Shown here: positions 2,461 through 61,500 of the stretch, in pieces
Layout of the letters: each line of letters opens with the position of its first letter
How positions within the stretch are numbered: position 1 is the first letter of the stretch
Origin: Paraspadella gotoi
Lineage: Eukaryota; Animalia; Chaetognatha
Length of the DNA stretch: 64,000 nucleotides
Assembly (NCBI GenBank): GCA_051294375.1
Contig: CM119269.1
Span: 19,629,936 to 19,693,935, forward strand
Direction of reading: 5' to 3'
Translations under genes and position numbers: made by a program
Notes under the pieces: generated by a model
Told to the model about the DNA's origin: nothing
The model's database searches: none
The model's input: the letters and a program-made list of their open reading frames with translations, nothing else

Positions 2461-3539
2461 CCTCCTCCATCGAATCTAGAGGCGCATAAAAATAAAGGAG
2501 TTTAATTCCAAGATTTTGACGATGAAGACGACGACGACGAAGACGAATCAACCTTATCAACAGGACTATTTGATTAGAAACAATGATACTAATTAGTCTA
2601 ACTCTATGCGATTGCTTGGAGAAAATTTTCAATTCTTTTTTTTTTTTATTTCTCTGCATCCGATCAGCTAAGAATTCTAAAGGCGTACCGAATCCTATAA
2701 AAGAATTACGTTTAATAATTTCTCTAAACTGTTAATATTTCATTTATTTTTTATTCCTTAATGACCCAACTGAGTAACAGTACTAAAGCCAAGTTTGCTA
2801 CATACTCATCGGCCTTATTCCAAGAGGAGAAGCAGAAACCTTAATATTTTGAGAGGATAAGTGAACATATTTATGAGAAAGTACTCAATAATGTGGGCCT
2901 GTGGCGAGATCTGCATCGAGACCTCATATACTCGTCCCATTTTGGAAAAACACTTCGTCGTCTCATCTCTTCTCGAAATTAAAGAAAAACCGGATTAGCC
3001 ACTTAAATTTTAAATTCAGTTTAATGAAAAACGTGAGCATTATAAAACATACTCTTTTATAATTTCTTTTGTCCCTAAAATTACTCGCTGATCGAACAAA
3101 TAATTCATTCACTAAGTTTAGCCATACGGTAATTTCGACCTCCTCTACCTCCTGCCTTCCTCCGATTTCTTTTTCTTTCCTTGCCTGATCACTTCCCCTC
3201 TTTGTTTATTCCTTCGCTTTCGCCAGATCTCTTAATTTTTTAATCCTTTCTCCCCGCTGGGGCTCCCCACTCGGCCGCTTACCTGTTCTCGGCTACTACT
3301 TGTTAACCATTTATTTCTGTGCTACTCTCGATTCATCGATCCTCACTCTTTCCTCCTTCATTCCTCCCCTTGTTCCCCTCTTCTCCCTCGATTTGACCCT
3401 CAAGAGAAAAATTATTTCGCTTTCCGTGCGAACTAATGACTTCAATTCCGTCGAATCTCATCATTTCCTCCTCTCCTCCTCCGCGAGTCGCGACCCCCTC
3501 CTGCCGACCCCTCCTGGTGGTTTCTATTTCTTCTCTTCG

Positions 3540-4690
3540 CCACCTCTCTTGGTATCCTACTTATATTCCCCACCCTTTGTCCTTTCCTTTCAACTCCACA
3601 CTCGCCCCCTCCTTTTCTCTTTTTCTTCTCTTCCCACCCTCTTTATTCCTACTCGTTTTTCCCCACCCTTTTCTCCATCCTTCAACTCCAACCGCCCCCC
3701 TCCTTTTCTCTTTTCTTCTCTTCCCACCTCTCTTTATACCTACTGTTTTCCCCACCCTTTCTCCTTCCTTCAACTCCAAGCGCCCCCTCCTTTTCTCTTT
3801 TTCTTCTCTTCCCACCCTCTCTTATATCCTACTTATTCCCCACCCCTTTCTCCTTCTTCAACTCCAGACCGCCCTCCTTTCTCTTTTTCTTCTCTTCCAC
3901 CTCTCTTTATCCTACTGTTTTCCCCACCATTTCTCCTTTCTTCAACTCCATACCGCCCCCTCCTTTTCTTCTTTTTCTTCTTCACCCTCTCTTATCCTAC
4001 TTATTTTCCCCACCCTTTCTTCCTTCCTTCAACTCCAACCGCCCCCTCCTGTTCTCTTCTTCTCTTCCCCCTCTCTTATCCCTACTGATTCCCCACCATT
4101 TCTCCTTCCTTCACTCCAAACGCCCCCCTCCTTTTCTCTTTTTCTTCTCTTTCCCACCTCTCTTTTATCCTACTTGTATTTCCACCCACCTTTCTCCTTC
4201 CTTCACTCCAACCGCCCCCCTCCTTTTCTCTTTTCTTCTCTTTTCCCACCTCTCTTTATCCTTTACTGATTTCCCCACCATTTCTCCTTCCTTCAAACGT
4301 CCAACGCCCCCCTCCTTTTCTTTTTTTTTCTCCATCCCACCTCTCTTTATGCCTACTTGTTTTCCCCACCCTTTCTCCTTCTTCAAACCCGCCAACCGCC
4401 CCCCTCCTTTCTCTTTTTCTTCTCTTTCCCACCTCATCTTTATCCTACTTGTTTTCCCCACCCTTTTTCTCCTTCCTTCAACTCCAAACCGCCCCCCTCT
4501 TTTCTCTTTTTCTTCTCTTCCCACCTCTCTTGTATCCTACTTATTTCCCCACCCTTTCTCCTTCTTCAACTCCAACCCCGCCCTCCTCCTTCTTCTTTTT
4601 CTTCTTCTTCCCACCTCTCTTGATATCCTACTTTATTTACCCACCCTTTCTCCTTTCTTCAACTCCAACCAGCCCCCTGCTTATTTCTCC
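3540..4690. repeat. Second, noisier copy of the ~88-bp minisatellite with the same flanks
   Basis: Same unit; flanks 3140-3500 and 4690-5200 match 640-1000 and 2460-2830 with many small indels. Confidence 0.85.
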
Positions 4691-6301
4691 TTCCTCATCG
4701 AATCTAAGGCGCGAATAAAATAAAGGAGTTTAATTCCAAGATTTTGACGATGAAGGACGACGACGAAGAAGACGAATCAACCTTATCAAAACAGGGAAAT
4801 ATTTGAATTAGAAGAACCAAGATACTAATATTAGTTCAGGAACTGACTATGGCAATTGGTGCAGTATGGAGGCAAGAGGGCCCAGTGGAATATCTGGTCG
4901 GGAGATTGGAGTGGCTCTTTTTTGTCTCTCCCTTTTCTCGAAATTCTTTTTTGTTGTATTTACTTACAAGGATTCGAATTTCCTTCGCCTCCGATTCTCA
5001 GTTCGGCGTTCCCTTCGACGATTCATCGACGCTAGAATTTTACGTAAGGGCCGTCGCCACGTCTAACCTAAACGTCCTACTTAACCAAGGAATTCCACGG
5101 GTATTCAATATAATTCTCTAAACTGTTAATATTCATTTATTTTTTTATTCCCTTGAACCCAACTGACATAGTAACCAGTCATAAAGCAAGTTGCTATCCG
5201 ATACTATCGTGCCGTGAATTCACCAAAAGGAAAGAGGGAAGCGAAGTATAACGCTTAGAGGATATGGATTTTGAGGATGAATTCTATTAAAGCTCAGATT
5301 GGCAATCTTTGGAATTAGTAAAACATTTTATTTTATATCTGGACATAGTAAGGAGGAAGGATTTAGAAAAATAGGCAAATTCAAGAACTACAAACGACTT
5401 TCTTTAATTGAAAAGGAAAGGAAATAATAAAGAGTAATGTGGGGGTGTGCCTTAGTGGGCTCTTAAACGGATATGGCATTACACAAATCCAGTTGGGCAT
5501 ATATGGTGAATCAAGCAAGACCTTCAATATGTCATAACTGGTTACCACTAGTGGTTAAATATATTGGCCAAGAGTTGACCTGAAAAAAGCTAAAGAAAAA
5601 GTAGAAACTCACAAGGCATTATTAGCCGCGAAGTTGGCGAATCGGGATCTGTGAGAACGCATTTGACTTTCCTACTCCCACTCGCATCTTCTCGAAACTT
5701 ACATTATTGTGAATCCGCAGATATTGACACGGGGCTTTCAACCAAAAGAAAAAACAAAAATTCCGCAGGTCAAATTTTTGGGATCAGACATTTTTAGAGT
5801 TTTTTAAGAATTAACTGTGTTTTCACCAAAATAATTTATCTATGTTTGTTTTTAGATTGGAAAACTGTGATGAGCATTTAATAGACAACATACACTTTTA
5901 TATTGATATCTCTCTTTTTGTTTCGCCCTTTAATAACTTACGTCTCTGAGTTCATGAAACAAATAATCATTCATACTAAAGTAGATTAAGTAGCATGAGC
6001 AAAAAATTCTTAGACAGTAATAAACAAATTTTTTATAGTGGCAGTTGCGGGTTGGCTAAGGTCAAAATGTAACCCATTCATCTAGCAAGAATGAAAGTAC
6101 ATTCCTAATATATATATTCTTGTTTGCAATAAGATATGCTAGTGTTACTTACAGAATGAGGAAAAAGAAAACCAAGATCGGAGAGAGTTATGAAGAAAGA
6201 GAGATTGATTAGGGATGCAAACGAGAGCATTAACATCAAGAAACTTGAAATGTGGGTCCGGGACCAGATTAGTTCTATACTTTGAAGACACGAGTGACTC
6301 A

Positions 6302-6821
6302 TGTAGTGGTATGGTATTTTTTCATGACCCCAGCTACTGGGACGTCCGGAGACAACCCTATGGCGAGGCCGGGAGGTAGGCAGCGAGGGCCTGCCTCCCC
6401 AATGAACCAAGAAGGTTTCGGCGCCCTTGGCGGTAGTCCACACAAAGGTAAAAGGGCGACGGGCGTCTAACCACTGTAGTGATCGGACCTACAGCCCGTC
6501 CGAAGTTCGGGACCTTGTGTTGCAACGGACGGTAAACGCTCGCGGGAGTCCGTCTTCCACATTGGTGAGGCCCCCACGAAACGGGGCATGGCACAGTTTT
6601 AATACACCCTCCTGCCCGGCATGTAACACAACCTCTTGCCCTCCGAACATCTGTGTGTGACCGGAAGGCTGGAATAGGGCACAAGCCCCTCCTAAGAGTG
6701 GGCTTCGGGCCACCAAACCGTGCCATACATAGCATTCCACTTGCCGGGTGGTGATTCTAGGGTGGATGTAGTTGTACGGTTAGTTTCACTACCCACTTTA
6801 CTGTCCGGATCAGGGCAAGCA
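6302..6821 (+). mobile_element. Two-LTR non-autonomous element (TRIM/retrozyme-like), family A, running into an N gap
   Basis: LTR1 TGTAGT..CCACA 6302-6561; PBS-like tTGGTGAGGCCCC from 6562; purine tract AGGGTGGA 6759-6766; second LTR starts TGTAGT at 6767 and resembles the LTR1 start; left flank CTCA. Sequence is indel-noisy. Confidence 0.7.
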
Positions 6822-7004
6822 NNNNNNNNNNNNNNNNNNNNNNNNNACTACATAATTAGTCTAATTTAGTTATTTTCTAAACATTATAAACCAGGTCATT
6901 AAGATTTTTTTAGGTCAAAGAAGACACTCTCAAACATCAAAAACTCTGAATTTGCCTCCGGGACCAGATATTATCACTTGGTTTAAAAAATAACGTTGAA
7001 CTCA

Positions 7005-7251
7005 TGTAGTAGAGTAGATATTTCCATACCCCACTACTCGTCCGAGTAATTCAGCAGCACCTATGGCGCCCGGACTGGTAGCACGAGCTCCTCCCAACCC
7101 AAGACTCGGGTTCCGCGCCCTGCTGATTCACACAAGTAAAAGCGGGACGGGGCGTCTAACCCACCTGTAGTAGGTCGGCTACAGCCCGATCCGAAAGTTC
7201 GGGACCTTGTGGTGCAACGGACGGTAAACTGCTCGCGCATCGTCTTCCGCC
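7005..7251 (+). mobile_element. Family A LTR (noisy copy) flanked by CTCA target-site duplication
   Basis: ctca|TGTAGT ... cttccgcc|ctca; contains tRNA-like head and twister core matching 14264-14490. Confidence 0.7.
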
Positions 7252-7255
7252 CTCA

Positions 7256-10200
7256 AACCTTTTTCTCGTAAAAGCTCAGTTTCTAAAATTTTTAAGTCTA
7301 CTTTTTCAAGATAAATTAATTTATCTATTAGCAGTTCATTTGAAACAAATATATTTTTATAAAAAAAAATTTTCCATTTCTGCAGTTAGAAAATAAAAAT
7401 TCACTTGTGAAAAGATCGAAGCTTGATAAAGGCTTCTTTACAAAAGCAACGACAACAAAACCCTTTGTTTGGGCGATATTCTCGCCGTTTCAAATCCGAC
7501 AGGATGTTAATAGATCATTAGCTGTCAGAGCTCGGCGTTGCCACGACGGTGCCGATTGCCGCTAACGCCAACGAACGCGAGCAAAATCGTTCCGCTGCTC
7601 TTCGCAAAAACGGATGTGCTCCATCTCTGTCTGTGTCATAGACTCGGCGCGCGCCGTATAAGAACAAATTGACAAGTGCCCAAGAGTGTTGACCAAAACT
7701 AGGAGTCAAGAAATTCATGCGGAAGAGATTCTTGTAATTCCTTTGTTTATTTGTTGTCTTTCGTAATAGATGAGTACGGCAAGTATTTGCAGTATTTTCT
7801 CAAACACAACAATTTTAATTTAACAAAGACGAAATGTTCCTGGCTCAAATCTTCCGAGCACTTCCTCAAGCGGCCAAATTAGAAGATGACAGCAATTGGA
7901 ATTTTACAACAACTGATATATTTTTAATTTGAAATACGCTCGAATATTATATTATATAGAACTCGTCCTTGACACGAGAATCTCTACTTAATACTTATAT
8001 TACAAATCCAGAGTAACTACCCACAAAATATAACTAGTACGCACCTTCTTTACGATTATAGAGCAGATCCGGATAATTATTAATGCAAAGATACTTCCAA
8101 ATTGCTGCATGCCTGTAAAAGCTCAGCATCACAATGTACCGGCTTTTTTCCATTCGCGACTCCAAAGCGCCGGACCATGGCTTACGTGATAATCGCACCG
8201 GATTGCGCGCCTTCGAAGAGAGCGTTGCAGCGAAGCAATGTAGCGGACCGCGCGTAAACAATCGATACGCGCAGCGCAGATCGCTTCCTTTTGGGACCAT
8301 CTTTTCAGCTGAAGGCTAAACAGGACAACAATAGATAATTGAGAGAGAAGAGATAGCAGAGAGAATCGAGAGAGATGAGAGAAAGAGAGAGGAGAGTAGA
8401 GAGAAGAGATCGAGAGAGAGAGAGAGACAGAGAGCACTTGAGAGAGACTGAGAGAGAGGAAACAGTAACTAAATCTGCTTGTGCAAAACAAGATAACTTT
8501 GTGGAACCGGCAGACTACTTTGTCCGCACAGGCGTACAACTTAAAACTTAACCTATAACACCACAGACGCTCACGAGGAATGCCCAGCTGCTTAACCCGC
8601 TACGGAACATATAGCCACGACGTTCCGACCATTTAGTACTAAACTCAACTACACAGCAACCAACAACACAGTTATAAAATCAGAAAATAAAAAAAATATT
8701 TCCCGTAGACGGAAAGTTTTCCCCCCGCCAAGGGTCTTCTCGGCGCGGACGAACAACAATAACTGAACAACGAAAGACCCAGTTTCTCTGTTTACGTCAC
8801 GTGATTGCGGATTGAGGAATAGTTGTAGCATAGCTATGGATAGATCTTATAGAGGACATTAGTGCATAACCTGTTGTGGAGGATTTCATTAAGATTTGAT
8901 CGAAGGTCAAAACAGTGATTATGGTGGCCATTCACGTCGGAAAAACAAAGAGACGATTAAGAAAGAAATTCGTTATTGAACGTTTAAGACTTTTGACCAT
9001 GATTTAGACCTTAGTTTTCTATAACTTGTATACTATACTATACTTTATACAATAAAAATAATACATTTTCTTTTAAAAAATCTTTTTCTCGCTCGCGACG
9101 AATCTTTTCCAAAAGGGTCCGTAATTTGCGAGGCTACCCAAAGTCATTTTCCAACGGCGCCCTGGTTGGGAAGACCTTCATTGTCTTCCATTTCTGAGAC
9201 CGTTATTGGGACGAATTTTGGGTCATGTTGGGTATCGATCAAAAAACAAAAGCGCCCCAGTTTCCCTTCTCAAGGCTGGTAAGTCTTTCGAATTCATAAC
9301 CATCATATCCACAATGTTCCTAAATCGGTCATGTCGAGTGAACCTGCTAATTAATATGCGTAACTGATATTCAGTTCGTCGAAGAGGAACAAACGAGAGA
9401 TCAGGTCCTGAAATTTCACCCTCGATGGGCAAAAGAGCCTGATGACCGATTATTTTCCGGAGGCTAATTTTGGAATTAGTGGCCGAGGATTCTTCACTGA
9501 AAAAGAACTCGAGTCGTGTTGCAGGATTTGTGATTTGTGGACTTTTAAAAAAATCACGAAATGATGAACCTTTGAAAAAAAAATTAAGATCAGAACTTGA
9601 AAATGATACGGACGACGAATTGCATCTGCCGGTACGATGTCAAACCCATTAGGACAACATAGAGAGGAGCAGAGGAGACCAGAGGACAGATGAGAGAGAG
9701 AGATGAGCTCGAGACGAGGAGGAGGGAGGAGGGAGTGAGGAGGAAGAGAGAGTATGGAACGAGAGAGACGAGAGACGGAGAGACGGAGAGACGAGACGAG
9801 AAGATAACATTATTATCAGCAGAACCGAGCCGCGACATCATCCGTACGAGGAGAGAAATGAATAACATGGCGGAGAAGGAAAACCATCTCACAAAATTGT
9901 GGAATAAGGTAATGACGAAAGGAGAGAGCGAGGGGAAAATTCGTGAATCTGGAATCGTGAGAGGGACCTTGGAAGAAGAGAGCTATGAAAAAAACGGGAG
10001 AGGAGAGAGAAATCGTGAGGGTGTTCTTGAAAAAGGGGAAGATGGTGAGGAAATGCGAAGCAATGAAAGAAAAGAAAATGAGAGGAAGGAAAATCGAAAA
10101 GGAATAAGCAAAAATAAAATAAACAAAAAAGTTTTCTTGAAAAACTGAGAGTGGGGAATTGGGAGTTGTTTACCGTCCAACGTATTATCGATTACGCGTA

Positions 10201-12702
10201 TTTCCTTCTATGTTTATCCTAGAAAATCATGATAAAAACGCGTTTAATACAGAACCAACAAACGATCACTACCTGGTGTAAGTTACCGTTAACCTAGACC
10301 AAAGAACCCCGAGAGACCTCAGTTTCCTCCATACTCAAAGATCCGCGCACCGTAGCAATATGGAACTCGGAACGCGCCGAGTTGCGTCGTTCTTCGCGTG
10401 TTAATTGATGTTGAATCTGCAGAAGTTGGACGAAATGTTGTCGTTCGAAGCGGACAAACGAGCTTATTACTCTTTGCTATTTTTGATGCAAAAACAGAAT
10501 ATTTCAGAAGAAAACGCGCGACAACTGAACGTTCACCTCCCCGGGGGGTTTTTCTCTCGTTTCTTTTTTTTTTTTTTAATATCATCGATCAATTCTATAC
10601 TTCCGTCTTGATTGGAGGGTCTCGAGAATAATCCGGCTAAGTGGTAACGACCTCCCAACGTCTATAAATTTTATACAAAAAATACAAGTTTATTTAAGTG
10701 ACCGAGAAGAGAGGGCCGCCATCCCCCACAGAAGGCCTTCTGACGTTGTGACTCCTTCCCCCCTCAAGAACGCTCACTAAGCTGACAGATTTGCCACTTT
10801 TATCTCCCGTCAGCTTGCTTTTCGCTTGCGTGCGGAATAACAAGATTATTTCATAATAAAAACGTGCGGGTTATATCTATACAATAAATATAAAATTAAT
10901 AAAAAAAATGGAGGAGGAAAACAAAACACCACCAGAATTCGAACTCCTACACTCGCTGGGACGCGAGTGGTCCCCAAAAAAGGAAAGAGGATTAACTCTC
11001 TCATTAATGTATGGAGGCTAACATCCTTTACTATTATAAAATTTGAAATCAAGTTTTGTCTGCAATTCTATAACCTACAATTAGTTTCAGTGTAATGATT
11101 TAAAAGCAGAATATAAAGAAGAAAAAAAAATAAAAAAAAAAAAAACTACTATTTCTCACATAAAGGCAAAATTCCTTCCATATGATAAGACAACTACATT
11201 AATAACTTCAAACTGCTACAAGACTAGAATATTATCACGGAAAACGTCCTCTGACGATAAATCTCTGACCTGCTAGCATATTCCTCTAAAAAGTCTCTCC
11301 AACAGGATTTGACGTCCTTCATACTAAACCGGATCGTTGACTCCCTCCTCTTCTGCCATAAAGATTTGCCCCGAGATCCCCAAAAAATGGAGCGCCTCCC
11401 CAAGTTATAAATTTCAATACCAGAGACAACCAAAAATAAAGCCTAAAATAAAACACCCGCGGAACAAAAAAAAACGAGGGAAAAAATACAAAATAATACA
11501 CAATTCAAACCAACCAACAATACCAACAAAGTTGAAACTCCGAAAGCAAACAAAAGGGAAAGAACGTGAGGAAGATAAATGAATCGGGCCTCTATATATA
11601 TAAAAATCGTTATTGTCCGTGGACTTGTAACTTGAGGAAAAAAATATATTGGTATATTGGGTGGGTTACTTATCTGAGACAAAGAGACGAGGATAGTGTG
11701 AGGAGATGTGAGAGAGGGGAAAAGATGACCTACTGCGGGAGGATGAGAAGCGAGAGCAGATTTAACCGTTGAGTGCACCCACCAGAAGCGGGAAAAAAAA
11801 AGAAAAAAAAAGAGAGCTAAGAGAAGGGCAACGGAATAGAAACATAAAATGAAAGAAAAAAACGCCAGGAGGGCGTGGGACACAGCCGCCACGAGTGACG
11901 TAGTGTACATGAGACGAGACGGAGAAAGAGACTGGAGAAGTAGAGAGGCAATCGAGGGAAATCGGGGCGAGGAAAGGACGAGAGACGATGAAGGAAGAGA
12001 AGAGAGACGGAGAACGAGAGACGAGAGAGAGAGCGAAGGTAAGAGAGATGACGCAGAGAAAGCCACACGTGCCATGCCGTAACTAGACTATTAGGAGGGA
12101 CAATGGAAATTCATTTCCCATTTTCCTTGTCGCAATTTTATTTCAGCCGAATTGACAACAGCCACCTTGCGGTTGCCAGGAGCTTTCGTTCCTCGCGACT
12201 TAAATAAAATATTTCTTTCTACCTTTATAGTAAATTAATTGTATATTGTTTCCTCACTTGTACTAACTATCTTATTTGCTTCACCTATTAGGAATTTAAA
12301 ACTGGGCGTAGCGTATTTCCCCATGACACATCTTTTAACAAAATTCTTATTCACGTCTTAGCAAATTTAAAAAAAAATTTTTCCGGCTTTTTTTCGACAA
12401 ATAGAAGACCGATTCTGACAAAAAACAATACACAAAGAAAAAATGGTTATTCATAAGAAAAAGGGGATTGAGGCTCCGCCGTTTTTTACTGCAGTCGTAA
12501 AGATTATGATTCTCCCCAACTGATATCTCTTTCTCTCTCTCCTCTCCTCTTTCTACTCTCTTCTTCTCTCTCTCTCTCTCTGCTCTCTCTCTCTTATCTT
12601 CTCCTCTCCTCTCTCTCTCTCTCTCTCTCTTCTCCCTGCTTTAGGTCGATTTCCAGAAGAAGAAAGTAACGTCCGAGATGCTGGACGCCTTGCGTTTCTC
12701 TC

Positions 12703-12742
<40 letters not shown>

Positions 12743-14250
12743 TCTCTTCTCTCTCTCTCTCTCTTCTCTCTCTCCTCTCTCTCTCTCTCTCTCTACTCTC
12801 TCCCTCTCTCCTGCTCATATTGTTTCTCGTTTCTGCCTTTATTACGATCGCGACGTTCCGTTTCCCATCACAGGTTATTCGGGTAAAGTGTATATTGATC
12901 CTTCTCACCAGAAACAATATAAAACAGCTCATAATGTTGTCCCTATTAAACGTGAATACTTTAAAATCTTCTCTTTTCGTGTAAGTTAGCTATATTGTTA
13001 GCTTGTTAGATTCCGTTATTGCGTATTGTGATCTTATTTTTTATTCCTGCTATCCCCCCCACACAAATTCTTCGATCTCTCGCACTCTCTCCTCACAACT
13101 CCCCCCCCACTAATCTTCTCGCTCTTCCTGTCTTCCCCCCCCTCAACATCAGGACACTGATAAGAATCCATACCGCGAGTGAATTCCTCGTTGGGACGGG
13201 GAATTTCCATTGAACGAACTGGAACCGGAATTCGAGTAATAAAACTCACGTTCCATTGATTTCCAGTTTTCGCCGACGGAGCTTCGAGGCGGGGGTTCGA
13301 ACCCGGGCCTCAATGATTAGAGAACCAGGGGGGAGAGACGAGAGAGAGGAGAGAGAAGAATGCAGAGGAATGAGAGAGACTGATAGAGATGAGACGGAGA
13401 GGAGAGAGAGAGAGAGAAAATCAGCATTGAGAAAGAAAATGAAAAAGGGTTGATGCGAGAGATGGAAGTTTAAGCAAATGTAAAGTAAAAATATCAGTTA
13501 AAATTATAATAGTGAATTGAGTTTTAGAGAAAACAAACGTTTTACAAACAACCGATTTTTTATGTATTAAAACAAGAGCACGAAATTCCAAATGTGTCGT
13601 GCCCCTCACGTGACTTTCTTAGCCTGTCTATTATTCTTTATAGTTCTTTTAAGATTTCCTAGAGCGGCGCTAGCAGCCACTTAGCTATTTGAAGTCTTCT
13701 CATGTCTTCTACAAATGTGCAAACGAGCTACTACCGACCGCCGACATACTAGACACCCGACCAGACCGACAGATCGAACGAAAATATGTCTTATTAGCGC
13801 TGCGCGTGAACTAATAAAACGCCATGTTTCGACTCTACTCTATGTTTTGCACTCTTTATCACGAAGTCAAAGACTCACAAAGAATGGAGAGTCGAAAACT
13901 CACAGAATGGTAATAAGCGAGATTGGTTATTAGAGAAGGTTTGCAAATTTCGGCCATAAGATTTCTAGAGTCTGCGAACGGTTTCGAGTCTAAAATGAAA
14001 AAGAAAAAAGAAGTTGAGAAAAGGAGAAGAGCAAAGAAAATAAAAGGGAGCAATTTTGGATGCGAAAGAAAGAAGCGGTATATCTGGCGTGATCCCTGCG
14101 ATATAATATATATATATAAATTAAAAAGAAAAAAATAGGAGAGAAAGAAGAAAGGAGTTGGATAAAGATTACGATATGAGCAATATGCAGAGGATGAAAT
14201 AAGAATCCATGGATGAATAGGTTTACAGATACAAATACAAAAAATTTAGC
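7256..14250. other. Near-duplicate of 14490-21570 (partly also 23750-24970); probable haplotig or long-read gap-fill redundancy
   Basis: Collinear match of unique sequence with frequent 1-2 nt indels; the second copy is broken by N gaps at microsatellites. Confidence 0.8.
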
Positions 14251-14263
14251 TTCTCTTCGTTTT

Positions 14264-14490
14264 TATTTCATACCCCACTACTCGTCCGAGATTCAGCAGC
14301 ACCTTTTGGCGCCGGAGGTAGCACGAGCTCCTCCCAACACAAAGGACTCGGGTTCGCGCCCTGCTGATTCACACAAGTAAAAGCGGGACGGGGCGTCTAA
14401 CCCACCTGTAGTGTCGGACTACAGCCCGATCCGAAGTTCGGGACCTTGTGTGCAACGGACGGTAAACTGCTCGCGGCATCGTCTTCCACA
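14264..14490 (+). mobile_element. Family A LTR, 5'-clipped at an apparent assembly junction, followed by CTCA
   Basis: A-box-like TGGCGCCGGAGG, B-box-like GGTTCGCGCC, twister core, ends CCACA|ctca. Confidence 0.8.
14370..14452 (+). ncRNA. Type-P5 twister ribozyme (family A)
   Basis: P5 CACACAAG/CTTGTGTG; L1 GA-CGG; cleavage motif U^AA at 14398/14399; P3 TGTAG/CTACA; P4 CCCGA/TCGGG; L4 TCCGAAGT; pseudoknots CCG:CGG and AC:GT. P1 and P2 are short. Confidence 0.8.
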
Positions 14491-14657
14491 CTCAAACCTT
14501 TTTCTCGTAAAAGCTCAGTTCTAAAATTTTAAGTCTACTTATTTTCAAGATAAAACTAATTTTATCATTAGCAGTTCATTTGAAACAATATATTTTTTTT
14601 AAAAAAACATTTTCCATTTCTGTCAGAAAAATACAATTCACTTGAAAAATGAAGCTT

Positions 14658-14912
14658 TATGGCAACAGCCGGGTTGCCTGTGATGCCCATTGGGATGGGG
14701 CATCTCACTGTTGGCTTTGGGGGCTTCCGACCCTCAGTGACGCCTCCAGTCACTGGCGCGGTTACCCTAGGACGGTCTCGCTTTGCCAACGCAGAGGGAA
14801 GTCGTTAGGACTGTGGATGGAACACTACGCTTGGGATGGTGTGTTCCCCCTCTGAGCCAATGGATTTGGCTGAAGGATGATGGACGTGAGGCGGTGTGAA
14901 TATACCGCCACA
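14658..14912 (-). mobile_element. Family B solo LTR, 255 bp, GCTT TSD
   Basis: Minus strand TGTGGCGG...GCCATA; gctt at 14654-14657 and 14913-14916; nearly identical to 51506-51760. Confidence 0.9.
14710..14790 (-). ncRNA. Type-P5 twister ribozyme (family B, core intact)
   Basis: Minus strand: GTTGGC aaa GCG a GA CCG tcctaggg TAA cCGC GC c AGTGAC..GTCACT ga GGG TCGGAAGC CCC ccaaa-like linker GCCAAC; pseudoknots CGG:CCG and GC:GC. Confidence 0.8.
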
Positions 14913-16276
14913 GCTTCGTGTTTGATCGTGTTGATTTTCACAATTCTTTCTATCGCCACCGCCGAAGAGTAAGTGGTTATACTTATATTGATCCTTTTTT
15001 TTTTAAATTTATACAAAGCATTCATCCAACAATGACTTATTTATATCTTATTATGAAATTAAAGTAATACTGATTATTTTCCCTTTACAATTCATTATTC
15101 ATTTGGCCCAACGAAGTTAAGTAAAAGATAAGCTGTTTTTAAGGTTTGAGAATGTTTTAATAATACAAAAAACTATTTTAGGCATCTCTTGTCGTTGAAA
15201 AAAATTATTATTATATTTTTCTTGAATTTGAAATTCAATCATAAGATAAGATACGGACAAAACCTCTGAAACGTCCATCGCATCATTTCATCAAAACATA
15301 GCAACCATCGATAAGTGCGAAGAAAAATGTTTGTTGCGAGGAACTTGCGAAGGTAAGTACGACAATTTCCGAGGGCATAAATATATAGTATAAATATAAA
15401 TATATAGTATAAATATATAGCCATAATATTTAGTTTTAATGTCCTCTTTTCCCCTCTCGACCGCGCATAAAGGCTTCCTTTACAAAAGCAACGAACAACT
15501 TTGTGGAATCTACGCCGTTCCAATCGACACGGATGTTATGATCATTGCGCCAGAGCTCGGCGTCTGCACGACGGGCGATTGCCGCAACGCCAACCGAAAG
15601 CGAGAAATTTCGCTGCTCAAAAGGATCTTATTATCTCTTCTGTCATAGACTCGGCGAAGAAAAATAAAGTGGCCAAGAGTCTTGACCAAAACTAGGGGTC
15701 AAGAAATTATGCGGAAGAGATTATGTGTAATTCCTTTCTTTTTTGTTGTTTTTGTATAGAGAGACAGTTTGAGTATTTTTGCAACAACAATTTAATTTAA
15801 CAATGGACGAACATGTTTCGGCTCAAATTCGAGCCTTCCTCAGCGCCAAATTAGAGATGAAGAGATTGGAATTTACAAACAACTGATATATTTTTTTATT
15901 TGTAAATAGGAAATTTTTATATAGAATCTCCTTGAAGATTCTCATTCATAATTTATATTTACAAATAGAGTTTTAACTACCCACAAAATATATACTAGTA
16001 CGTATTCTTTACATATTATAAGCGATCGGATAATTCTAAGCAATACTTCCAAATTGTCATGCCTGTAAAGACTCAGCGACTCTCAATGTCCGCCATTTTT
16101 TCATTCGCGACATGCCAAGCCCGACCATGCTTTACTGAAACGCACCGATGCGCGCCTTCGAGAGAGAGCGTTGAGCGAACAATGTAGCCGACCGCGCGTA
16201 AACAATCGAACGCGCATGCGCAGATTTCGCTTCTTTTGGGACCATTTTTCAGCTGAAGGCTAAACAGAAAAGAGTA

Positions 16277-16392
<116 letters not shown>

Positions 16393-17446
16393 TGTTGTGC
16401 AAACAAATAACTTTGTGAAACCGGAGACGACTTTGTCCGCAAGCGTCAATAAAACTAACTATAACAACAACGCTCACGAGGATGCCAGCTTAACCCGCTA
16501 GAACATATAGCACGAGTTACAATTTATATCAAACTCAACTACAAGCAAAACAACAATTAAATCAGAAAATAAAAAAAATATTCCCGTAGACGGAAAGTTT
16601 TCAGTCGGCGGAGAAAAAATAACAACAACAAAGACCAGTTTCTCTGTTTACGTCACGTGATTCGGGATTGAGGGAATAGGTAGATACATGATAGATTTTA
16701 GAGAATTATGTCATAACTGTTGTGGAGGATTTCATAAGATTTGATCGAGGCAAAAACGTGATTTATGTGGCCATTCAGTCGAAAAACAAGAGAGTTTAAA
16801 GAAAGAAATTCGTTTTTAAAACGTTAAGATTCAGACATGATTTAGACCTTAGTTTCTATACTTTATACTATACTATACTTTATACAATAAAAATAATACA
16901 TTTCTTTTAAAAAATCTTTTCTCGCTCGCGACGAATTTTTCCAAGCGTCCAAGAAATTTGAAAGGCTACCCAAAGTATTTTCAACGGCGCCCGTTGGGAA
17001 AGCCTTCATTGCTTCCACTATTGAGACAGTTATGGGAATAATTTTGGGTCATGTTGGGTATCGATCAAAAAACAAAAGCACCCAGTTTCCCCTCTCAAGC
17101 GGTAAACTTCGAATCATAACATCATATCAAATGTTCCTAAAATTCGGAGTCGAGGAACCTTGCTAATTAATTGGGTAATGATATTCAGTTCGGTCGAAGA
17201 GACAAACGAGAGATCAGGTCGAAATTTCCCCTCGATGGGCAAAGAGCCTGATGACGATTATTTTTCCGGAGGGAATTTGGAATGAGTGGCCGAGGATTCT
17301 TCACTGAAAGACTCGAGCGTTTTGCGATTTGTGATTTGTGACTTAAAAAAAATCACGAAAATGATGAACCTTTAAAAAAAAATAAGATCAGAGCTGAAAA
17401 TGACGGACGACGATGCATCGGTAACGATGTCACCCATTAGGACAAC

Positions 17447-42147: not shown

Positions 42148-43465
42148 TTAACATCGATCTGATCTCAACGACGCTCCATAAATGAAGACTGACCTTAAGT
42201 CATTTTTGTACGCACCCGAAGATTCAGAATCGTTTCCCTCAACCACGAATACCTCTTGACTTCCGCCTGATTGAGAAAGGAATGCAGTATGTCAACAATA
42301 ATTATCTTTTGCTAGTTGCAAGAAAGAGCTCAGTGAAGAGACAGTAATTATTGTTATATGTTCAACCGTTCAAGCAGTCCCTGAGCTTCGGATCAGGCTG
42401 TAACACCGTGTTACAGGCGGGTTAAGAGCCCCGTCCCACTTAACTGCTAGGCGGCCACCGGGCTAGAACCCCGGACCTTTGGGCTGGGAGGCGAATGACT
42501 TGCCTCCGGCACCAATGACCGCTGATGAACGGTTGGTGGATTTTAGTCCACCATATCAAATTTTTTTTATGGGGGGTTCGACAATTTATTACTTTTCATC
42601 CTAATATATATGTCATATTATTTAATAGTTTTCCTAACCACAAACTGCGTAATTTGCCGTATCAACAGCGAAAGCTTGACTACAATTCGAATCTCCATTC
42701 ACCATAACTGCTGAGCGTAGATCCCTCGTCCATCGGCGTTGTCGATCGCGAAGACATCGGCCGCCGCGGCGCAGCCAGCGTCTCTGGCGCCGCTGAGTTA
42801 ATTCGCTTATTCTCCTTCAGCAAAACGTTTTTAACGTCGGCGTGCAGACCCGGGATCGGCAGCTCCGTGTTGAGCACTTCGAGGATGGCGCCGTCCGGGA
42901 GTCTGGAAGGGGAACGTAATAAAATTAATTATTCGTAAGTAGTTGGTTCTATTTGTTTCTAAAAACTAAAAAGGATATTTTCAGATATACACTCTAAATT
43001 TAACAATTAGCAATCTAATTTGTGGTTACTTTTACTTTCGCCGACCAGGGTTAGGGAGGGGTTAGGGTTAAGGGCGGTTTAAGGTTAGGGGTAATTAGGG
43101 TTTAGAGTGTTTAGGGTTAGGGTAATTAAATAATATTTTTTTATACTTTTTTTTAAAAACAAATATTTTTAAATAGTTTTTTGAAAGCCGCCAAAACCGC
43201 GATCGGCGAATGTAAAATTTGGCCCTAATTTTGATCATTAGACCCCCAACACTGGTTTTACTTTCCTTTTTGACTGTCAGCTATTAACTTATTAACTATT
43301 TTAAGCTAAGTTAAATACCACCAACGGAATAGATCTTAGTTGGGCTCGTCCCCTTCACGAATCAGCAGCAAACAGACGAATCACAGACCCGACGTGAGCC
43401 TCCGACTGACCATTGACCGACGGAGGGATCGACGGTAGTTTTAATGTTATCTCATGTCAAATCTT

Positions 43466-43514
<49 letters not shown>

Positions 43515-46500
43515 ACTTTTATCTCTGTGACTCACTAATCAGCTGTCAAATCTCAGACTACGACTAGTACGACTACTTTATTCGATTTCGTCTTCAAAAA
43601 AAAATCAAAAATAAATTTTTTTTCGCGTCAAAAATGACTTCGGCAAGTTGCTCATCAACCAATACCAAAAGTAAAGGTTGTATGTAAAAATACTTCTTTT
43701 TTGTTGCCATGCGCAGAAGGGTGGAGTGATGAAAAGATTGAGTGATTGAACATTATTTTTTTGCTGCTTATGGATATGTAATTAATAAATTTTAAATCCT
43801 TTTAAAAATCTTTTTAGTATAATAGTATAGTAAATTCAATTATTTATGTAGTAATATCCTTATAAAATCGTAACTTTTTTTATTTTTAAGAACAGATTTG
43901 GATCCGCTGTAAAAAATTAAGAAATTTTTATAAAATATGTTATATGATATTTTAATGTTTGGATCACAAAAAATGATTAAAACATTTTAACATATATAAG
44001 TTTCTATTACAAAGAATAAAAAAAATTATAAATTTTCACCTTTTTTCCCGTTTTAAACACTGAAGATGATATAATTTTTGATAACATGTTTTATATTTTT
44101 GATTCAACTTTTTATGAAAAATCTGAATCTTTAATAAAAGTTTTAAAAAAAAAAATTTTAAAATTTATTATTTTATAAGAATATTATTACAAAGATATTA
44201 TATTTTATTATTTTGTTCCCGAGATAATATGAACAAAATATTTTTTGTACTAGTTGATCATATTATCTCGCATTTAAAATTAAATATCCTTGTTCGATCA
44301 TTCAAATAATGTTTTTGTTCTTGAGTGCTCCACTCTAATGCGCAGTGCTTGGCATGTATACTTACAGGAAGTGATTTATTTACTTTGAATGATTGTTTGA
44401 TTGATTCGGCCCTTGTCTAGCTAGCAAGGTAACGAAAAAAAGTAATGTTTTAATAATTTTTTCTCTTATCATTTATGTATTGACAAAAAACTGTTCAATG
44501 TGGGCATTTACGGACTGCTTTATGGACCAATACTTTTTTGTCACTATCTCCATCGATGTAACATTTTTTTGAAAAAAAAGGGGAAAAAATTGAAAGCCAA
44601 AACAAAATATTCTAAAACTTTACGTAGGATATTATTATTAAAATTATAGATGCTAAACTCATGCCACAGTAATCTGCTACTCTACAAAAATTTAATGAGA
44701 TCCTAAACTAGCGGTAGTATTTCATACCCTGCTACTCGTCCGAGAATCAGCAGCACCTATGGCGCCGGAGGTCTCCCAAACCAAAGGACTCAGGTTCGCG
44801 CCCTGCTGATTCACACAAGTAAAAGCGGGACGGGGCCTCTAACCCACCTGTAGTGACGGACTACAGCCCGATCCGAAGTTCGGGACCTTGTGTGCAACGG
44901 ACGGTAAACTGCTCGCGGCATCGTCTTCCACAGACGGGCACTTTTAATCCACACCTAATTGATTGTTCAATATTATCTTTTCTTTTCTGTCAATATATTT
45001 TTCTATAAGTATAAGTTGAATATCAGAGTAAGTAAACGATATTTACTTTTCCTCCAGCTCAAGCGCCAACACCAACACCACCTTCTAAAGGCTGGACTGG
45101 CGTTGCCATCGGCGCTGGCGCACTCGTTGCTACCTGCGGGGTCTTCAGCGCCTTATAGTCCGCCGGCGCCGTGGGTATCGGCGTCGCCGGTAACGCGGTC
45201 ATCGGTGGGACCGGCGCCGTGACTGGTGCTGGGATCACCGCGGGCGCTGCCAAATTGGCCAAGTGGTGGAAGAGCAGAGTAAAAAAATCAAGCAAAGAAG
45301 ACGAAAGCACTGAAGACGAAAGCACTGAAGACGAAAATGAAGGAAGCGATCTCGAAGATGACCAAAGTAAAAAAGGAGGTGACGGCGGAAAAAAAAAGAA
45401 ATGATTTTTGGTTAAAAAATTTCGAAATCGTGAAAAAGTTCAATTCGATCAATGTGCAAGTTGTACTCGAAAAATTATTCGCTATCAAAGTTTTGTTACT
45501 ATCTTTCTAATTCATGATATTAAATTTTAAAGTAATTATTTTGTTTTGTTGTGTTTTATTTTTAAAGTTAATTCAATTTTCAGTTATTATTTTCTGCTAT
45601 TATTATTTACAAAGCCGTAAAAGACCGATGGGCCACATTTTAAAACAAGATGGCCACGTCAATAGATTTAAATTTGATGAATCAATTCGAGAAGTTTGGG
45701 ACTCTCTACCTATTGCTTTCTCTGAAAAGGTATCCTAACCGGAAGTAAAGTGACGAGAATGCGGGAAACTAATATATTGACGGAAGGAAAATCTATACTG
45801 AGACAAAAATGAGGGTAAAGAAAGGGAGAGAAACGAGTAGGAGAAGAGAGAAAGGTGAACTGCATCTCGTGAACGCGGCCCCGAATCCCTGGGAGGAGGA
45901 TGAAGAGGAGGTGAATGAGAAGGAGGAGGTAATAGACCCGCGTCTGTCTATCACCTTATATACTGGCTTTTTACGTAAAAGTTTAGTTTTTTTGCGTTTT
46001 TGTCCTCTCTTGAAAGAAAACTTGAAAGAAATCGCGATCGCACTTTGTTTGAATTCGCGAGGGACTTGATTTGCAGAAGCTGTTCCTCAGTTTCTTGGAT
46101 CAACTCATATCAGTATTTAATTATTAGTAATATTAGTACTTTGAGCGACGCGACGTCCAGACGCAAAACTCTACGTTTTCTTTCATTTCTTTCGGTTTCT
46201 TTTTGAGCTCCACTCGGTCTCACCTCAAAAACTGTCGGTGCAATTCTCTGAATCCGTCGAGATAAAGAGTGTGAATGGAGACGTGGGACGTTACTTCTTG
46301 CGCGGCGCTGCTGCGTCCAACGCTGCCACGCCTGACTACGCCCAGCTCCTCCTCGTCCCAAACATAATCGTAGACGGTGACTTTTCGACGTTCTCCTTCG
46401 TCGCCGCGCCATTGTTCGGCTCGTCTGTATATAACAATTAGTTATCTTGTATCTTGTAAAACCTTTTGGAGCTAGCGCCAAGAGCGAAAACAATTTTTTT

Positions 46501-49500: not shown

Positions 49501-52500
49501 CGGTATTCTTCTATTTTTTCTTTCTTTCTTTCCCTTTTTTATTCCTATCTTTCTTTATTACTTTCTTTATTTTGTTTGTTTTCTACCTCTCTTCGACTTT
49601 TTCTTACTTTCTTCCTCTCTTTACTACTCCCTTCTCCTCTTTCTTCTTTTCCTTTCTAATAACGAATTTTTATTTTTTTTCATCGGTTTCTTTCTTCTCT
49701 TCCCTTTCCTTCCTTTTTCCCAACACCTCCCCATGGTTCCCAATCCCCAAAAATAACCTCATCTTCATCTTCCTCCAGCGGTGTTTTCGTCGAGTATTCC
49801 AGGATCCTCTCAACGCCCACCATCATCTTCTCCAGCCAAGTGAAGTGCTGCACGACAGAGTTGGCCAACCAGCTGACCTGTAGCGCGTAGGTGATTGTGA
49901 GGCCGACGAAGCCGGCCGCGCCAGTCTGACCGCGCAGCACCGCGGAGAGAGCGACGCCGCCGATTACGAGGAAGTTGGCGAAGCCAAGGTAGATCTTGTG
50001 ATGGGAAGTGACATTAAAGGATAAGAATTTTGATAAGGATAAGGATATTAAAAGTTGTTTCACCTCGAGCCAACCCGAAACGGCGTATGAGTTAAACTCT
50101 GCCCTAGCCTTTGCCTCTATGCGCGCAAGGCTGGTGGTGACGAAGCGGCGCTCGTCTCTCATGGCGCGGATGACGACCGCCCCGTTGAGGCAGTCGGAGA
50201 AATGAGAAAAGATCGGGGATTTCGTTATGGACTCAATCCGCTTCAGTTCCCGCGAGGTGCGCCTGTAGATCAGCTGGAGGCGGTAAAGAGGGAGTAGAGC
50301 GGAGTGAAGGTAATTAGTTATAGGAAGATTAAATCAGATAGAAGATAAATGTGATTCAACAATGTGACTCTATTAACAAACAGTTTTTTCTTTTTTAGTT
50401 TAAATTTGAAAATAAATCTCTTTTACCTGAAATACGAAATAGAGCAAGAATGCGGGAACAAGAGCTAAAACGAGCCATGGAAATCCGTAGCAGATTACGA
50501 CCATCGCCATCAGCAGATTGAAGACGTCCTGCAAGAGCATGCTGAAGAGATTGGCCAGATGGTCGTCGATGTCGGCCAAGTCGCTCGAGAACCGGTTGAT
50601 AATCCTGAAAGGTTAGTGTCATTAACGAAGCTTTAAAAAAACCAAACTGTTGTCCTCAGTCTAAGAGACTTTCAACATTTTCTTTTTTGACGGAAGAAAA
50701 AAGAATAATAAAAAGTAAAACCACTGGCCATACCTCCCAACAGGCGTCGCAGTGAAAAAGCGCAGCGGCGCAGCCATAATTCGTTCCAGCAGAGCGGAGT
50801 GGATGCCGCGCGCCGATTGAATGCCAGCGCGGATGAAGACGAAAGTAAGAACGCAGGATGTGGCGAACTGACAGACGAAGAAAGCGCAGTAGACGCCGAG
50901 ATAAAAAGTAAGGTTGTCCGAGGCCTCGCGAAGGGGGATCCAAGGGGTGGTGGCGGTGGTTGCCGCGAAGGAGTTGTCGTCCGTCTTCCAAGCGGTGACG
51001 TTGACATCCTCTTCGACCCTCCGTGCCTCCACCCTTGTGTCGTTAGTGACGGTCGCATTGGGATAAGGATGAGTGTTGTTGATCCACACCGTCATCCAGA
51101 TGTCCATGCCCCTGACGAAGAGATATAGCAAGGCCACACAGAGGACGATGAAAGCCCCGACGGCACGCCCCGTGTAGGACAAGTAGGCCCAGTAGACTTT
51201 GGGGTCGACGAAGCCAACCATCTTCGTCTCTTCCTCCACCAGTTTGTCGTTGCCCGACGCCGGTTCGTCGGCGGCGGCGTCGGCGGCGCTTTTTAGCCGC
51301 TCGCGGTGGGAAGATTCGACGGCGTCGAGGAGGGCAGCATCGAAGATCTCCTAGCGGTCGAGGGGAGAAATGTCGATTGCTCTTTTATTTACAATCAATG
51401 TTTTTAAATTGTGGAATTGAATATTTCTATGATATTTACATGAATTTTTGTTTTTTAATTTTTTTAAATATTTTTTTTTCTCGAGAATTAGTAAAAGTGT
51501 AAAACTATGGCAACAGCCGGGTTGCCTGTGATGCCCATTGGGATGGGGCATCTCACTGTTGGCTTTGGGGGCTTCCGACCCTCAGTGACGCCTCCAGTCA
51601 CTGGCGCGGTTACCCTAGGACGGCCTCGCTTTGCCAACGCAGAGGGAAGTCGTTAGGACTGTGGATGGAACACTACGCCTGGGATGGTGTGTTCCCCCTC
51701 TGAGCCAACGGATTTGGCTGACGGATGGTGGACGTGAGGCGGTGTGAATATACCGCCACAAAACGATAATATATTATGGTTCATGCTTCAAACGCCGTTT
51801 AATAATAAATCAAAATAATTATTTTGACAATTTGCCTATAAACCCCTTACCTCAGGCTCTCCCACCCTCGCGATCCTTCCTTTTTCCATCACGACGATTC
51901 GGTCCGCCGACCGCAGAAATTTCCCATGATGCGTGCAGAGCACTCTCGTCTTATTCTTCAATACTCCGACCACGCACTGGAGTTAATATGTAAGAAAACA
52001 GATTCAATCAATCAATCAATAAATAAATAAACCGGTTAATACAATTTTAAAATGAATAAAAAAAAACCGATCGAAGATATGAATCAATTAATTAATCAAA
52101 TTCTCAACAACAACCTGTCGAAAAAGCTTTTCGGCGACTGCGGGATCCACCGCGGCGAATGGATCGTCGATGACGTAGACATCCGCGTTGGCGTAAACCG
52201 CCCGCGCCAACGCCACGCGCGCCTTTTGTCCCCCGCTCAGAGTGACGCCGTTCTCGCCGACCTCTGTGTCGACGCCGGCGGGGAATTCGGCGACGTCTTC
52301 GGCGAGTTGACAGGCGGCGACGACGGCGTCGAACCAATCGGGATCGAAGGCGCGCCCGAAGAGGATGTTTTCCTTTGGGTTTGGGGAAAATCCAACTGAT
52401 TGTCTCATTTTCAAGACGCCTGCATTTCCGTCATGAAATAGTTTTAGTTTCTCTCATTCTTCTTCTTCTCTTTCCGCCATCCGTTTTTCTTTATAAATAT

Positions 52501-58500: not shown

Positions 58501-61500
58501 GCCGTCGGCCCCACCGCCGCTTAAGACGGACGAATCGGCGACTTTGTTGTTCTTCGTCTTTCGACCCAAAATGGCTTTTCCCTTATAGGGTCTTCGTCGT
58601 TTCGGTTCCGTCGAAATCAATGAATCTTCCGAACTCGATTTGAGTCTTGTGAGCGCCGCGAGTCCCGCCGGCGTCGCGGTCAGCGCCGGCGACGCCGCCC
58701 CTTGCAGCGCCAAGGAAGACGAAGATCCTAGAAGCGGCGTTCTGAACGACAAGAAATTCAATTTTTTTTTAAAAAAAATGAAAACATATCTAAGAATAAC
58801 AAAACATCGAAAATACTATTAATACCGCTTAAAAAAATATCTTCAAAAGTTAACGCCCACTTTCCTACGCTGTTTCCTGTTGATGTTTATTTTACGTTTT
58901 TACGGCAAAACAGACGGAAGCGAGAGTCAATCGGCCTCGCTCCGACAGACCGAGGTCCCGATATTTGTCTCTTACCCGCCACGTGGCGTCTCCACCGGCG
59001 TTGGAATGACGTCAGAGACGGTCGATCCGGCGCCGATTTCCGGTTCTTCGCCGTCGCGCGACGCCTCGGCGCCGACGACGCGATCCGGGTGACCGAGAAG
59101 GGAGGAGGTGAAGTTGATCTCCACCTCGAACTCCTTTTGGCCACCGAGGTATCTGGTGGTGGTTGAAGAGTTTGTTGAGGTTTGGCGCGATTTAGAAAGG
59201 GGTCGCGCATATAGTTGTCATTGTGGCAACAGCCGGGTTGCCTGCGATGCCCATTGGGATGGGGCATCTAATTTTTGGCTTTGGGGAGCTTTCTACCCTC
59301 AGTGACGCCTCCTGCCACTGGCGCGGTTACCCTAGGACGGTCTCGCTTTGCCAAAACAGTGAGAAGTCACACATTGAGCGCCACTCTAAGGTCGGGTAAG
59401 GCTGACTCGGGGGAAAAAACTAATAAAACGCTGGACGGGAGAGGGCTGGTGAGAGAAAAAAGAGAGAGAAAGCGTGAAAGAAACCCTAACCCTGGCCTCG
59501 GCCCTGGATCTCCGGGAGGAGGGGGAGGAGGATGAAAGAGAAATGAAGAGGAAACGTTGCATGCTGACGAAGCCAATCGGATCTTTCGGATCCAATCGGA
59601 TGGAACGTAACGCTTAGAATGGTGCGTTCCCCCTCCGAGCCAAGGGGATTGGCTGAACGATGGTGGATGTGAGGCGGTGTGAATATACCACCACATCATT
59701 GTAATATTGATAATACTAATACTACTTCACCATATCAATAAATAAAGTACTATTTCTTGATCCAGACCCACGCCCTATCATCAACCTTCCCCTCCTGACC
59801 TCGGCAGCCTAACGACTTCGAAGTAAAAATTGCAGAGCCAATTGTCGATGTCCTCGTTGATGATTTCCTCCAACTTTTGATGCTTTTCGATCCGCGGGTC
59901 CATCTCTCCGCGGAGCATCGGGCACTTGTATTTTCCTTGTTAAAAAACGAAAAAAAACAAAAAAAACATGCTTTCAAAAAAAAAATCGGTAATTACCGTT
60001 AAATTATCGTATGTAGTGCTTGAAGTGGTTTGAGATTAAATCTAACCTTTCAATTAGTGAAAGTATAGAGGGCACTGCCCGTGTTTAATCAAACAATCAA
60101 TCAATTGAACGATTGATCGATTTTTAACCGTTGATCATTTATTCAATAATTAAAATTATATTCGTAAATGAAGAATGAAAATAAACTAATTACTCAATCA
60201 ATCATTCAAGGAAGAATCAATCGATCAATCTCTTCGTCGTCCACCTTCTATGATGTTGAAGTCCGAGTTGGAGATGGGAAAGCATCCCCACGCGACGACC
60301 CTGTCCGTGTTGACGACGGCGCCTCTCAACAAAAAGACCTCGAAGACAAGGATCATCCCAGGACGGACGTCCGGTTTTGACGGACAGACAGTGAAGACGG
60401 ATTGATTGATCTGTGAGTCGGGCGGAGTTTGGCAGATATAAGATAAAAAAAAAAAAAAAGAACAAAAACAACAATAACAGAAGCAGAGAGCAGCAACAAA
60501 CCCCGCGCCTTTTCCCCGTCTCACCTTGATCTCGACGTCGTGAAACCTCCCCGCGTGCGTGACGGGCAGCGACGCCCCTCCCCACTGTTGCCCCTTGAGT
60601 TTGGACCAGCGGAGGACGTTGCCCCCGAGTCGGTTGTAGAGCGACGCCATGACGACGTAGCGGCCGCGGGGGAGTTTGTCGCGGACACCGCGAAGGCATT
60701 TTAGACTGGGAACGATTTGGATTTGATGTAGGATAAATGCAAGTATTGTAGTCGGGCATTGCTTACTGCTAAGGTTCACACCGCCTATAGGCATGACACC
60801 TTCAGTTGTGACCCGGTGGCTCATTGAGTAAAGCCATCAGCTCATGACCACTAGGTACCGGGTTCAATCCTAACTTATCCTGCGGGAAGCGTGAGAACGG
60901 CCGTAAACCACCTTGGGGCGTGGAAAACCCTCAAGCCCGATTCCAAGCCCAGGACATGTTCCATTGCTGCTGCGGGGGCACAGAAGATACGGAAAGAAGT
61001 CTTCAGCCCACTTAGCGCCTTATTCACAGGAAAATTATTTTAGGAATGAGTAAATGAGCGCATAAATGAATTAATGCAAGGATAAATGATTTATTTGATT
61101 GATTGATAGTTATGAGTGTTAAATTATCAGCGTAAAATTAGGAATGAAAGGAAATACAAACTAAAAAATAAAAAACCCGCCAAAATTAAAAAACATAAAT
61201 AATTAATTAAAAACAAAAAAGGCTAATAAGCCCACAAAAAATACTTACCAAACCCACTCCACTTACCGAATCTGCACCGGCTGCGGCGTCTTCTCCCACT
61301 CCACCTTCCATCTCCTTCCTTTGGCCCCTCCGTATTCGCCGTCGGCCAAAGTCAAGTCTCCGTACATCGTCTCCACCTCTGGGAAATAAATTACCCTTAT
61401 GTCGATTTCTTCATACCATAGTATTTTTTAAACATCACACTGTGGCATCAAACTCCGGCTTCCATGTTTTTCTCACCGGCTTTCCTGTGCCGGAGAGCCC

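Follow-up and report, generated by a model that had tools for sequence, protein, structure and literature searches.

Retrozymes with long terminal repeats (LTRs) have been described as carriers of type III hammerhead ribozymes and mainly from plants, whereas the retrozymes described in animals are non-LTR (PMC7761336; bioRxiv 10.64898/2026.07.22.740005). A terminal-repeat retrotransposon in miniature (TRIM) with a tRNA promoter has already been reported from animals under the name Helenus, or TRIMp3 (Kojima 2024; PMC10886601), and twister ribozymes have been tied to viroid-like circles (bioRxiv 10.1101/2022.07.19.500677). Here we analyse a stretch of 64,000 nucleotides from the chaetognath Paraspadella gotoi (GenBank assembly GCA_051294375.1, contig CM119269.1, positions 19,629,936 to 19,693,935; hereafter the window), in which short LTRs combine tRNA-like promoter boxes with what is very probably a real twister fold of type P5, and in which one copy, at 6302–6821, appears to carry two LTRs around a non-coding interior.

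The likeness to Helenus comprises a short non-coding body, A and B boxes in the LTR, a primer-binding site (PBS), a purine tract and target-site duplications (TSDs) of 4 bp in animals, together with an abundance of solo LTRs, an inferred Gypsy partner and, in one wasp family, a tRNA-Trp PBS. The difference lies in the ribozyme, which is not described for Helenus: in the available text the word "ribozyme" occurs once, in the title of a reference, and "twister" never, and the matches listed for its supplement, where line breaks can hide motifs, include no twister-like match in an LTR. Pol III (RNA polymerase III) transcription of Helenus is unproven (PMC10886601). Judged by sequence, the P. gotoi element shares with Helenus the boxes, the PBS with its (weak) purine tract and the 4-bp TSD; the scaffold is a published one and the novelty, by the literature searched, is the twister added to it. 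A first-pass annotation of this DNA knew of no described twister-based LTR retrozyme; no twister-bearing TRIM or LTR retrozyme was indeed found, in a search with most subscription papers and Repbase outside its scope, but the tRNA-promoter TRIM scaffold was not new.

Plant LTR retrozymes (Cervera et al. 2016; PMC4918200) resemble the element in being non-autonomous, with one ribozyme per LTR, 4-bp TSDs, Gypsy-like PBS and polypurine tract (PPT), and a predicted monomer without the R region. They differ in their type III hammerhead, tRNA-Met PBS, 600–1000-nt RNA and plant hosts; their circles have been shown, whereas those of the window element are predicted, and a tRNA-type promoter is not described for them in the text examined. 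The P. gotoi element lacks the hammerhead of LTR retrozymes and most likely works like one. Metazoan non-LTR retrozymes (Cervera and de la Pena 2020; PMC7229834) share the animal host and the small size, and the ribozyme helix of the amphibian ones, reduced to a single pair with a palindromic tetraloop, is active in the dimer; they differ in that their hammerheads are of type I and stand in tandem repeats lacking LTR, PBS and PPT, and have been tied to Penelope-like elements (bioRxiv 10.64898/2026.07.22.740005). The T-variant twisters of Schistosoma Perere-3 (PMC8501958) are likewise weakened-P1 twisters in an animal retroelement, but that element is non-LTR and has a single ribozyme at its 5' end with P1-type topology.

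Four LTR families with tRNA-like boxes and a twister fold

Nine LTRs in the window, belonging to four different families (A to D), extend as far as the ribozyme, and in each of them tRNA boxes are followed by a type-P5 twister fold (Table 1). The first-pass annotation had assigned a tRNA-like promoter and a type-P5 twister to family A, which our analysis upholds, but it had overlooked the other three families and the reduced, palindromic P1 described below. The A and B boxes are spaced by 44 nt, with GGTTC present, in families A, C and D; the predicted cut falls at LTR position 149–158 in all families where the 5' end is intact; ~130–150 nt, including the twister, follow the B box, and no T4 run lies downstream of the boxes in the clean LTRs. 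The first 30–40 nt of the family A, B and D LTRs also form a 5'-terminal hairpin, whose sequence differs by family.

Solo LTRs dominate the window. Four of the seven single LTRs examined are flanked by 4-bp TSDs (all three family B copies and the family A copy at 7005), in agreement with the TRIM first proposed; the three family B TSDs are all distinct, and the background frequencies of the 4-mers are 0.003–0.007, with 14–28 end pairs tried per copy. A solo LTR with a TSD implies a two-LTR parent and an integrase.

The motif in these LTRs resembles the Rfam type-P5 twister (RF02684) in the order of its parts, in the general-base G with the A that follows it, in the U^AA cleavage site, in the geometry of the 10-nt L4 and in both pseudoknots (T1 and T2). 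It differs in that P1 is a linker of 6–8 nt, that P3 and a closed P5 are present and that the letters of T1 and T2 are others. Among the eight copies tabulated for the fold, GA is kept in seven (GG in the 51506 copy) and UAA in all. Families A and D have CGG/CCG as T1, against CCG/CGG in B; for T2, B and D share GC/GC and A has AC/GU; P4 is closed by A-U in A and D, and in C the helix P2 opens with a U-A pair. P3 and P5 vary in sequence between families with pairing retained. Read by eye, these departures from the Rfam consensus are compensated by a change of the partner in intact copies. Both T1 and T2 are complete in the family A copies at 14264 and 44714, in D and in the family B copy at 14658; they are partial in the family A copy at 7005 (a read error) and in C (decayed). 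Over the A and D copies, four in all, pairing holds in 96.9% of 96 cells, and both sides have changed in 4 of 24 pairs (7/500 shuffles), which is effectively a comparison of two families; pairs across families were taken from anchored positions, as MAFFT misaligned B and C against A and D.

Four sites match a strict twister descriptor, every one inside these LTRs (mean over 40 shuffles, 0.05), and six match a relaxed one (0.17 over 30 shuffles), both descriptors having been written after the motifs were seen. For an external comparison, 36 phage loci were gathered by two patterns, of which 20 were scanned, and the Rfam twister consensus was taken from the matches. In the 64 kb, a model built from 13 type-P5 twisters of phages places the family D copy at the head of its six matches (E 0.016); a model trained on the window (R1) gives family C 19.6 bits and ranks phage twisters at the top among 41 loci. 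The Rfam twister-P1 model matches family B weakly (15.2 bits, E 1.7), and the window has no Rfam match to a type III hammerhead, the motif here being of twister type. High-throughput assays found twisters forgiving of flaws in P1, P2 and P4, whereas flaws in the pseudoknots or the catalytic bases were not tolerated (PMC11662667); the window LTRs keep this pattern.

Besides the late writing of the descriptors, several results weigh against the fold. When the whole window is searched, families A and B go unlisted by the phage-trained model, which gives 14385–14441 just 3.8 bits; at the gathering score Rfam has no match in the whole window, RF02684 included, and on family A it reports no twister up to E 10. 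Folding yields modest z-scores, between -0.7 and -2.0 in families A, B and D, +0.6 in C and -1.1 in the interior.

A loose descriptor found 11 sites against 1–10 in shuffles and did not discriminate. A weak antisense twister-like match in the interior, at 6740–6698 (-) (E 0.41), was rejected, being most likely the complement of a plus-strand UUCG-type hairpin, without the other parts. Viroid-like RNAs carry ribozymes on both strands. One phage contig (L020) holds two Rfam type-P5 twisters ~240 nt apart (59–115 and 298–359), with a probable ribosome site and a start codon after each.

Table 1. Positions and properties of the LTR features in the window.
Feature	Position	Strand	Remarks
Left TSD candidate CTCA	6298..6301	+	identical 4-mer on both sides of the 7005 solo LTR and after 14490
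5' LTR (LTR1), family A, noisy, 260 nt	6302..6561	+	TG at 6302, CA at 6560-61; other near-complete copy 247 nt
A box to B box, tRNA-like, degraded by read errors	6361..6425	+	clean counterpart 14307-14361, spacing 44 nt
Type-P5 twister fold in LTR1	6435..6522	+	48.6 bits with model R1; predicted cut 6468/6469
PBS, TTGG at 6562	6562..6577	+	resembles tRNA-Trp PBS of Helenus-2_SyJa and Gypsy-32_NVi
Non-coding interior, 205 nt	6562..6766	+	57% GC
Purine tract adjoining LTR2, short, weak	6759..6766	+	7/8 purines
3' LTR (LTR2), first 55 nt only	6767..6821	+	TG at 6767; N run 6822-6846 ends LTR2
Family A solo LTR	7005..7251	+	CTCA on both sides, same insertion site as 6302; predicted cut 7157/7158
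Family A LTR, clean, without first ~14 nt	14264..14490	+	CTCA directly after; predicted cut 14398/14399
Family A LTR, independent	44714..44932	+	twister core intact, 5' end damaged, TSD not found
Family B solo LTR, TG..TA	14658..14912	-	TSD AAGC; T1 of the twister inverted
Family B solo LTR, TG..TA	51506..51760	-	TSD GTTT; conserved A beside general base altered
Family B solo LTR, TG..CA	59222..59695	-	TSD ATGA; altered L4; ~205 extra nt inside
Family C LTR-like copy	60747..61010	+	tRNA boxes; twister decayed; uncertain 3' end; termini without TSD
Family D LTR-like copy	42335..42560	-	tRNA boxes, intact twister core; ends uncertain; TSD not found

A reduced P1 linker

The segment from T1 to the cut is only 6 nt long in families A, C and D and 8 nt in B, and forms no stable hairpin; P1 hairpins of 14–25 nt are found in 12 of the 13 phage twisters (the thirteenth was misparsed), and a P1 closed as a hairpin was not seen in the window LTRs. 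Instead, a linker complementary to itself across its centre occurs in families A (the 7005 and 14264 copies, which are two of three tested and may be one locus), B and C. Given the outer pairs, the chance of such a palindrome is 0.14 per family, and ~0.01 for three families of four if these were independent; since they are not fully so, this last figure is only suggestive. By analogy with dimeric hammerheads, the palindromic linker suggests that the twisters of two LTRs cut as a pair: in the axolotl, hammerheads whose stem is a single pair and whose tetraloop is palindromic cut better as dimers (PMC7229834). A single twister alone may cut poorly. Two points tell against such pairing. Family D and the 44714 copy lack the palindrome; moreover, P1 has been reported to be dispensable in twisters (PMC5408937), so that monomers may cut alone. 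We regard pair-dependent cutting through swapped P1 linkers as a tentative proposal with somewhat less than even prospects.

The two-LTR copy

The stretch 6302–6821 reads as CTCA, a TG..CA LTR, a tRNA-Trp-like PBS, a 205-nt interior, a purine tract and the start of a second LTR, a layout in which the coordinates of the first-pass annotation all hold, its 205-nt interior and gap-cut second LTR included; CTCA recurs, as it had noted, both left of 6302 and after the LTR ends, at 7252 and 14491. The second family A LTR start that it placed at 6767 is well borne out, with a score of 39 for the LTR2 stub against the 14264 copy and a shuffle maximum of 26 (n=500), and eight of the ten top-scoring window tiles for these 55 nt, including the top five, are family A starts (self excluded). 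The PBS differs from the tRNA-Trp site by a 2-nt insertion and one mismatch, and its score is reached in 6/500 shuffles and in none of 5190 window tiles, a tiling that may have missed the framing of some sites; the purine tract is weak, being equalled or exceeded in 7/198 interior windows.

The boundaries of the interior are exact, as it begins straight after CA and ends straight before TG. Its GC content is LTR-like, the flanks having 23–32%, and Pfam has no match in the two open reading frames (ORFs) that overlap the element. The implied length of the two-LTR element, with LTR2 read for 55 nt only, would be ~700 nt, the bound for TRIMs being ~1 kb. A second copy of the 6562–6766 interior was not found within the window.

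Set against the clean 14264 copy, LTR1 shows one mismatch and 14 indels in its 3' half, compared with two mismatches and no indels between the two clean copies, and its 5' half is only ~66% identical: the 6302–6821 stretch is low-accuracy sequence from a single noisy read. A 25-N gap (6822–6846), whose length we take to be the mark of a gap filler, truncates LTR2 ahead of its ribozyme position. The LTR1 twister is found by model R1, which was not trained on this copy. We consider the two-LTR copy probably real; the design of LTR plus twister is much better supported than this copy.

Genomic context

Large noisy duplications relate 6847–14246 to 14264–21575 and 12698–14093 to 23634–24927. The first, taken from 7019 on, has 75–89% identity with an 807-nt indel; a raw long read of a second haplotype or of a duplicate probably stands beside the scaffold here. 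To the left of 6302 and 7005, the flanks match over ~70 nt, with a score of 52 where shuffles reach 29 at most; the match goes no further. CTCA brackets 6302..14490 as well as both sides of the 7005–7251 LTR. We infer from these matches that the two-LTR and solo-LTR forms of one insertion, on two haplotypes or in duplicates, were placed adjacent to each other in the assembly, and 14264–14490 may be the remainder of LTR2. At 930–2490 and 3400–4720 there are two arrays of a pyrimidine-rich tandem repeat of ~90 nt, perhaps one array entered twice.

Elsewhere in the window, a multi-exon gene resembling ABCC10/MRP7 occupies 48400–56900 (-). One of its exons is 58–61% identical to mollusc, echinoderm and hemichordate proteins, the best by identity being animal ABCC10, and no close relative is among the matches listed (best 120 of 4174). 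The family B LTR at 51506–51760 appears to be intronic in this gene; in the family B copy at 59222–59695, the ~205 extra nt sit between the B-box region and the twister. ARAGORN found no tRNA gene. Patterns made from the families found nothing in viral contigs, and their single metagenome and genome matches were one coding stretch; looser patterns gave 18 viral loci, with no twister by eye and, for the 13 of 18 submitted to Rfam, no ribozyme.

A putative retrozyme cycle and its alternatives

On balance, we lean towards a short non-coding LTR retroelement that acts as a retrozyme, with the whole route through a circle. Pol III would start at the LTR1 boxes and read through to LTR2, and the twisters of both LTRs would cut the transcript into a monomer of ~450 nt, corresponding to the distance from LTR start to LTR start (465 nt as read, probably somewhat less given the insertion errors). 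In such a monomer each base of the LTR would be present a single time and a terminal repeat would be missing, so that normal strand transfer would fail; circularisation would solve this problem, as has been proposed for plant retrozymes, which lose R (PMC4918200). RtcB circularises animal retrozyme monomers in vitro (PMC7229834). The circle would then be copied, likely by a Gypsy partner and primed by tRNA-Trp, a partner and primer suggested by the PBS and the TSD as has been argued for the animal Helenus (PMC10886601). More speculatively, the palindromic P1 linkers would pair and the twisters would cut as a swapped pair, in which case solo-LTR RNA and the closed circle, with one twister each, would resist cutting. 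The most elaborate version, an animal lineage of diversified, Pol III-driven LTR retrozymes with a domain-swapped double twister and a protected circle, we hold to be doubtful.

Several observations speak against the retrozyme cycle. There is only one two-LTR copy, which is noisy, adjacent to a gap and missing its second twister, and the LTR1 twister as read fails both the strict and the relaxed descriptor. A T4 run at 6597, the sole T4 between the boxes of LTR1 and LTR2, could stop Pol III. Family B has no standard B box by the pattern used, no TSD was found for the 44714, family C and family D copies, and no retroelement protein domain was found in the 35 ORFs scanned out of 91 of at least 120 aa.

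The alternative that survives best is a linear TRIMp3-like element, in which the twister would replace the T-run as former of the 3' end: with a cut only in the second LTR, and no circle, the transcript would keep its 5' end and a ~95-nt terminal repeat and could undergo ordinary LTR strand transfer. By eye, the B box of most Helenus LTRs in the available supplement is directly followed by a T-rich run, and the LTR ends a little further on (PMC10886601); the twister occupies that place here, in clean LTRs free of T4 beyond the boxes. With so minimal a P1, the first copy might plausibly be cut slowly or in a way that depends on its context. Yet both LTRs of a TRIM are identical, so that cutting only the second requires a special mechanism; pairing of the palindromes would cut both; and plant and animal retrozymes with tandem ribozymes do yield circles (PMC7761336; PMC4918200; PMC7229834). 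We consider such a linear cycle unlikely.

Still less likely is that the twister is a passenger, brought into an ancestral LTR with a tRNA-headed twister short interspersed nuclear element (SINE) or a Penelope-type piece, its fold being a relic or serving short solo-LTR transcripts outside the replication cycle. Kojima has proposed SINE capture as the origin of TRIMp3 (PMC10886601), twisters are known at the ends of non-LTR elements (PMC8501958), and the predominance of solo LTRs in the window would fit. Against this, four families with little identity outside the core have kept the catalytic bases, the position in the LTR and compensated pairs, and such conservation across divergent families points to selection during replication of the element. 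Least credible is an artefact in which only solo LTRs exist and a chimeric gap-filling read supplied the interior and the 6767 repeat: the noisy sequence, the 25-N gap, the large duplications nearby, the interior without a second copy and the ~70-nt limit of agreement between the 6302 and 7005 left flanks favour it, but the chimera would have to join exactly at both LTR boundaries, with a PBS of known type and a purine tract, the interior has an LTR-like GC content, and solo LTRs with TSDs imply two-LTR parents regardless.

If the most elaborate version is true, the P. gotoi element would be the first LTR retrozyme outside plants and the first with a twister, and its twister would be dimeric in nature, as the double hammerhead is; its palindromic P1 predicts that one copy cuts poorly and two copies cut well. 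With a twister-based LTR form in an animal, ribozyme-cut, probably circular, replication would have re-arisen with another scaffold, another ribozyme and another promoter. Type-P5 twisters would also have a role in eukaryotes, and a whole group of these twisters would be escaping the usual Rfam scans.
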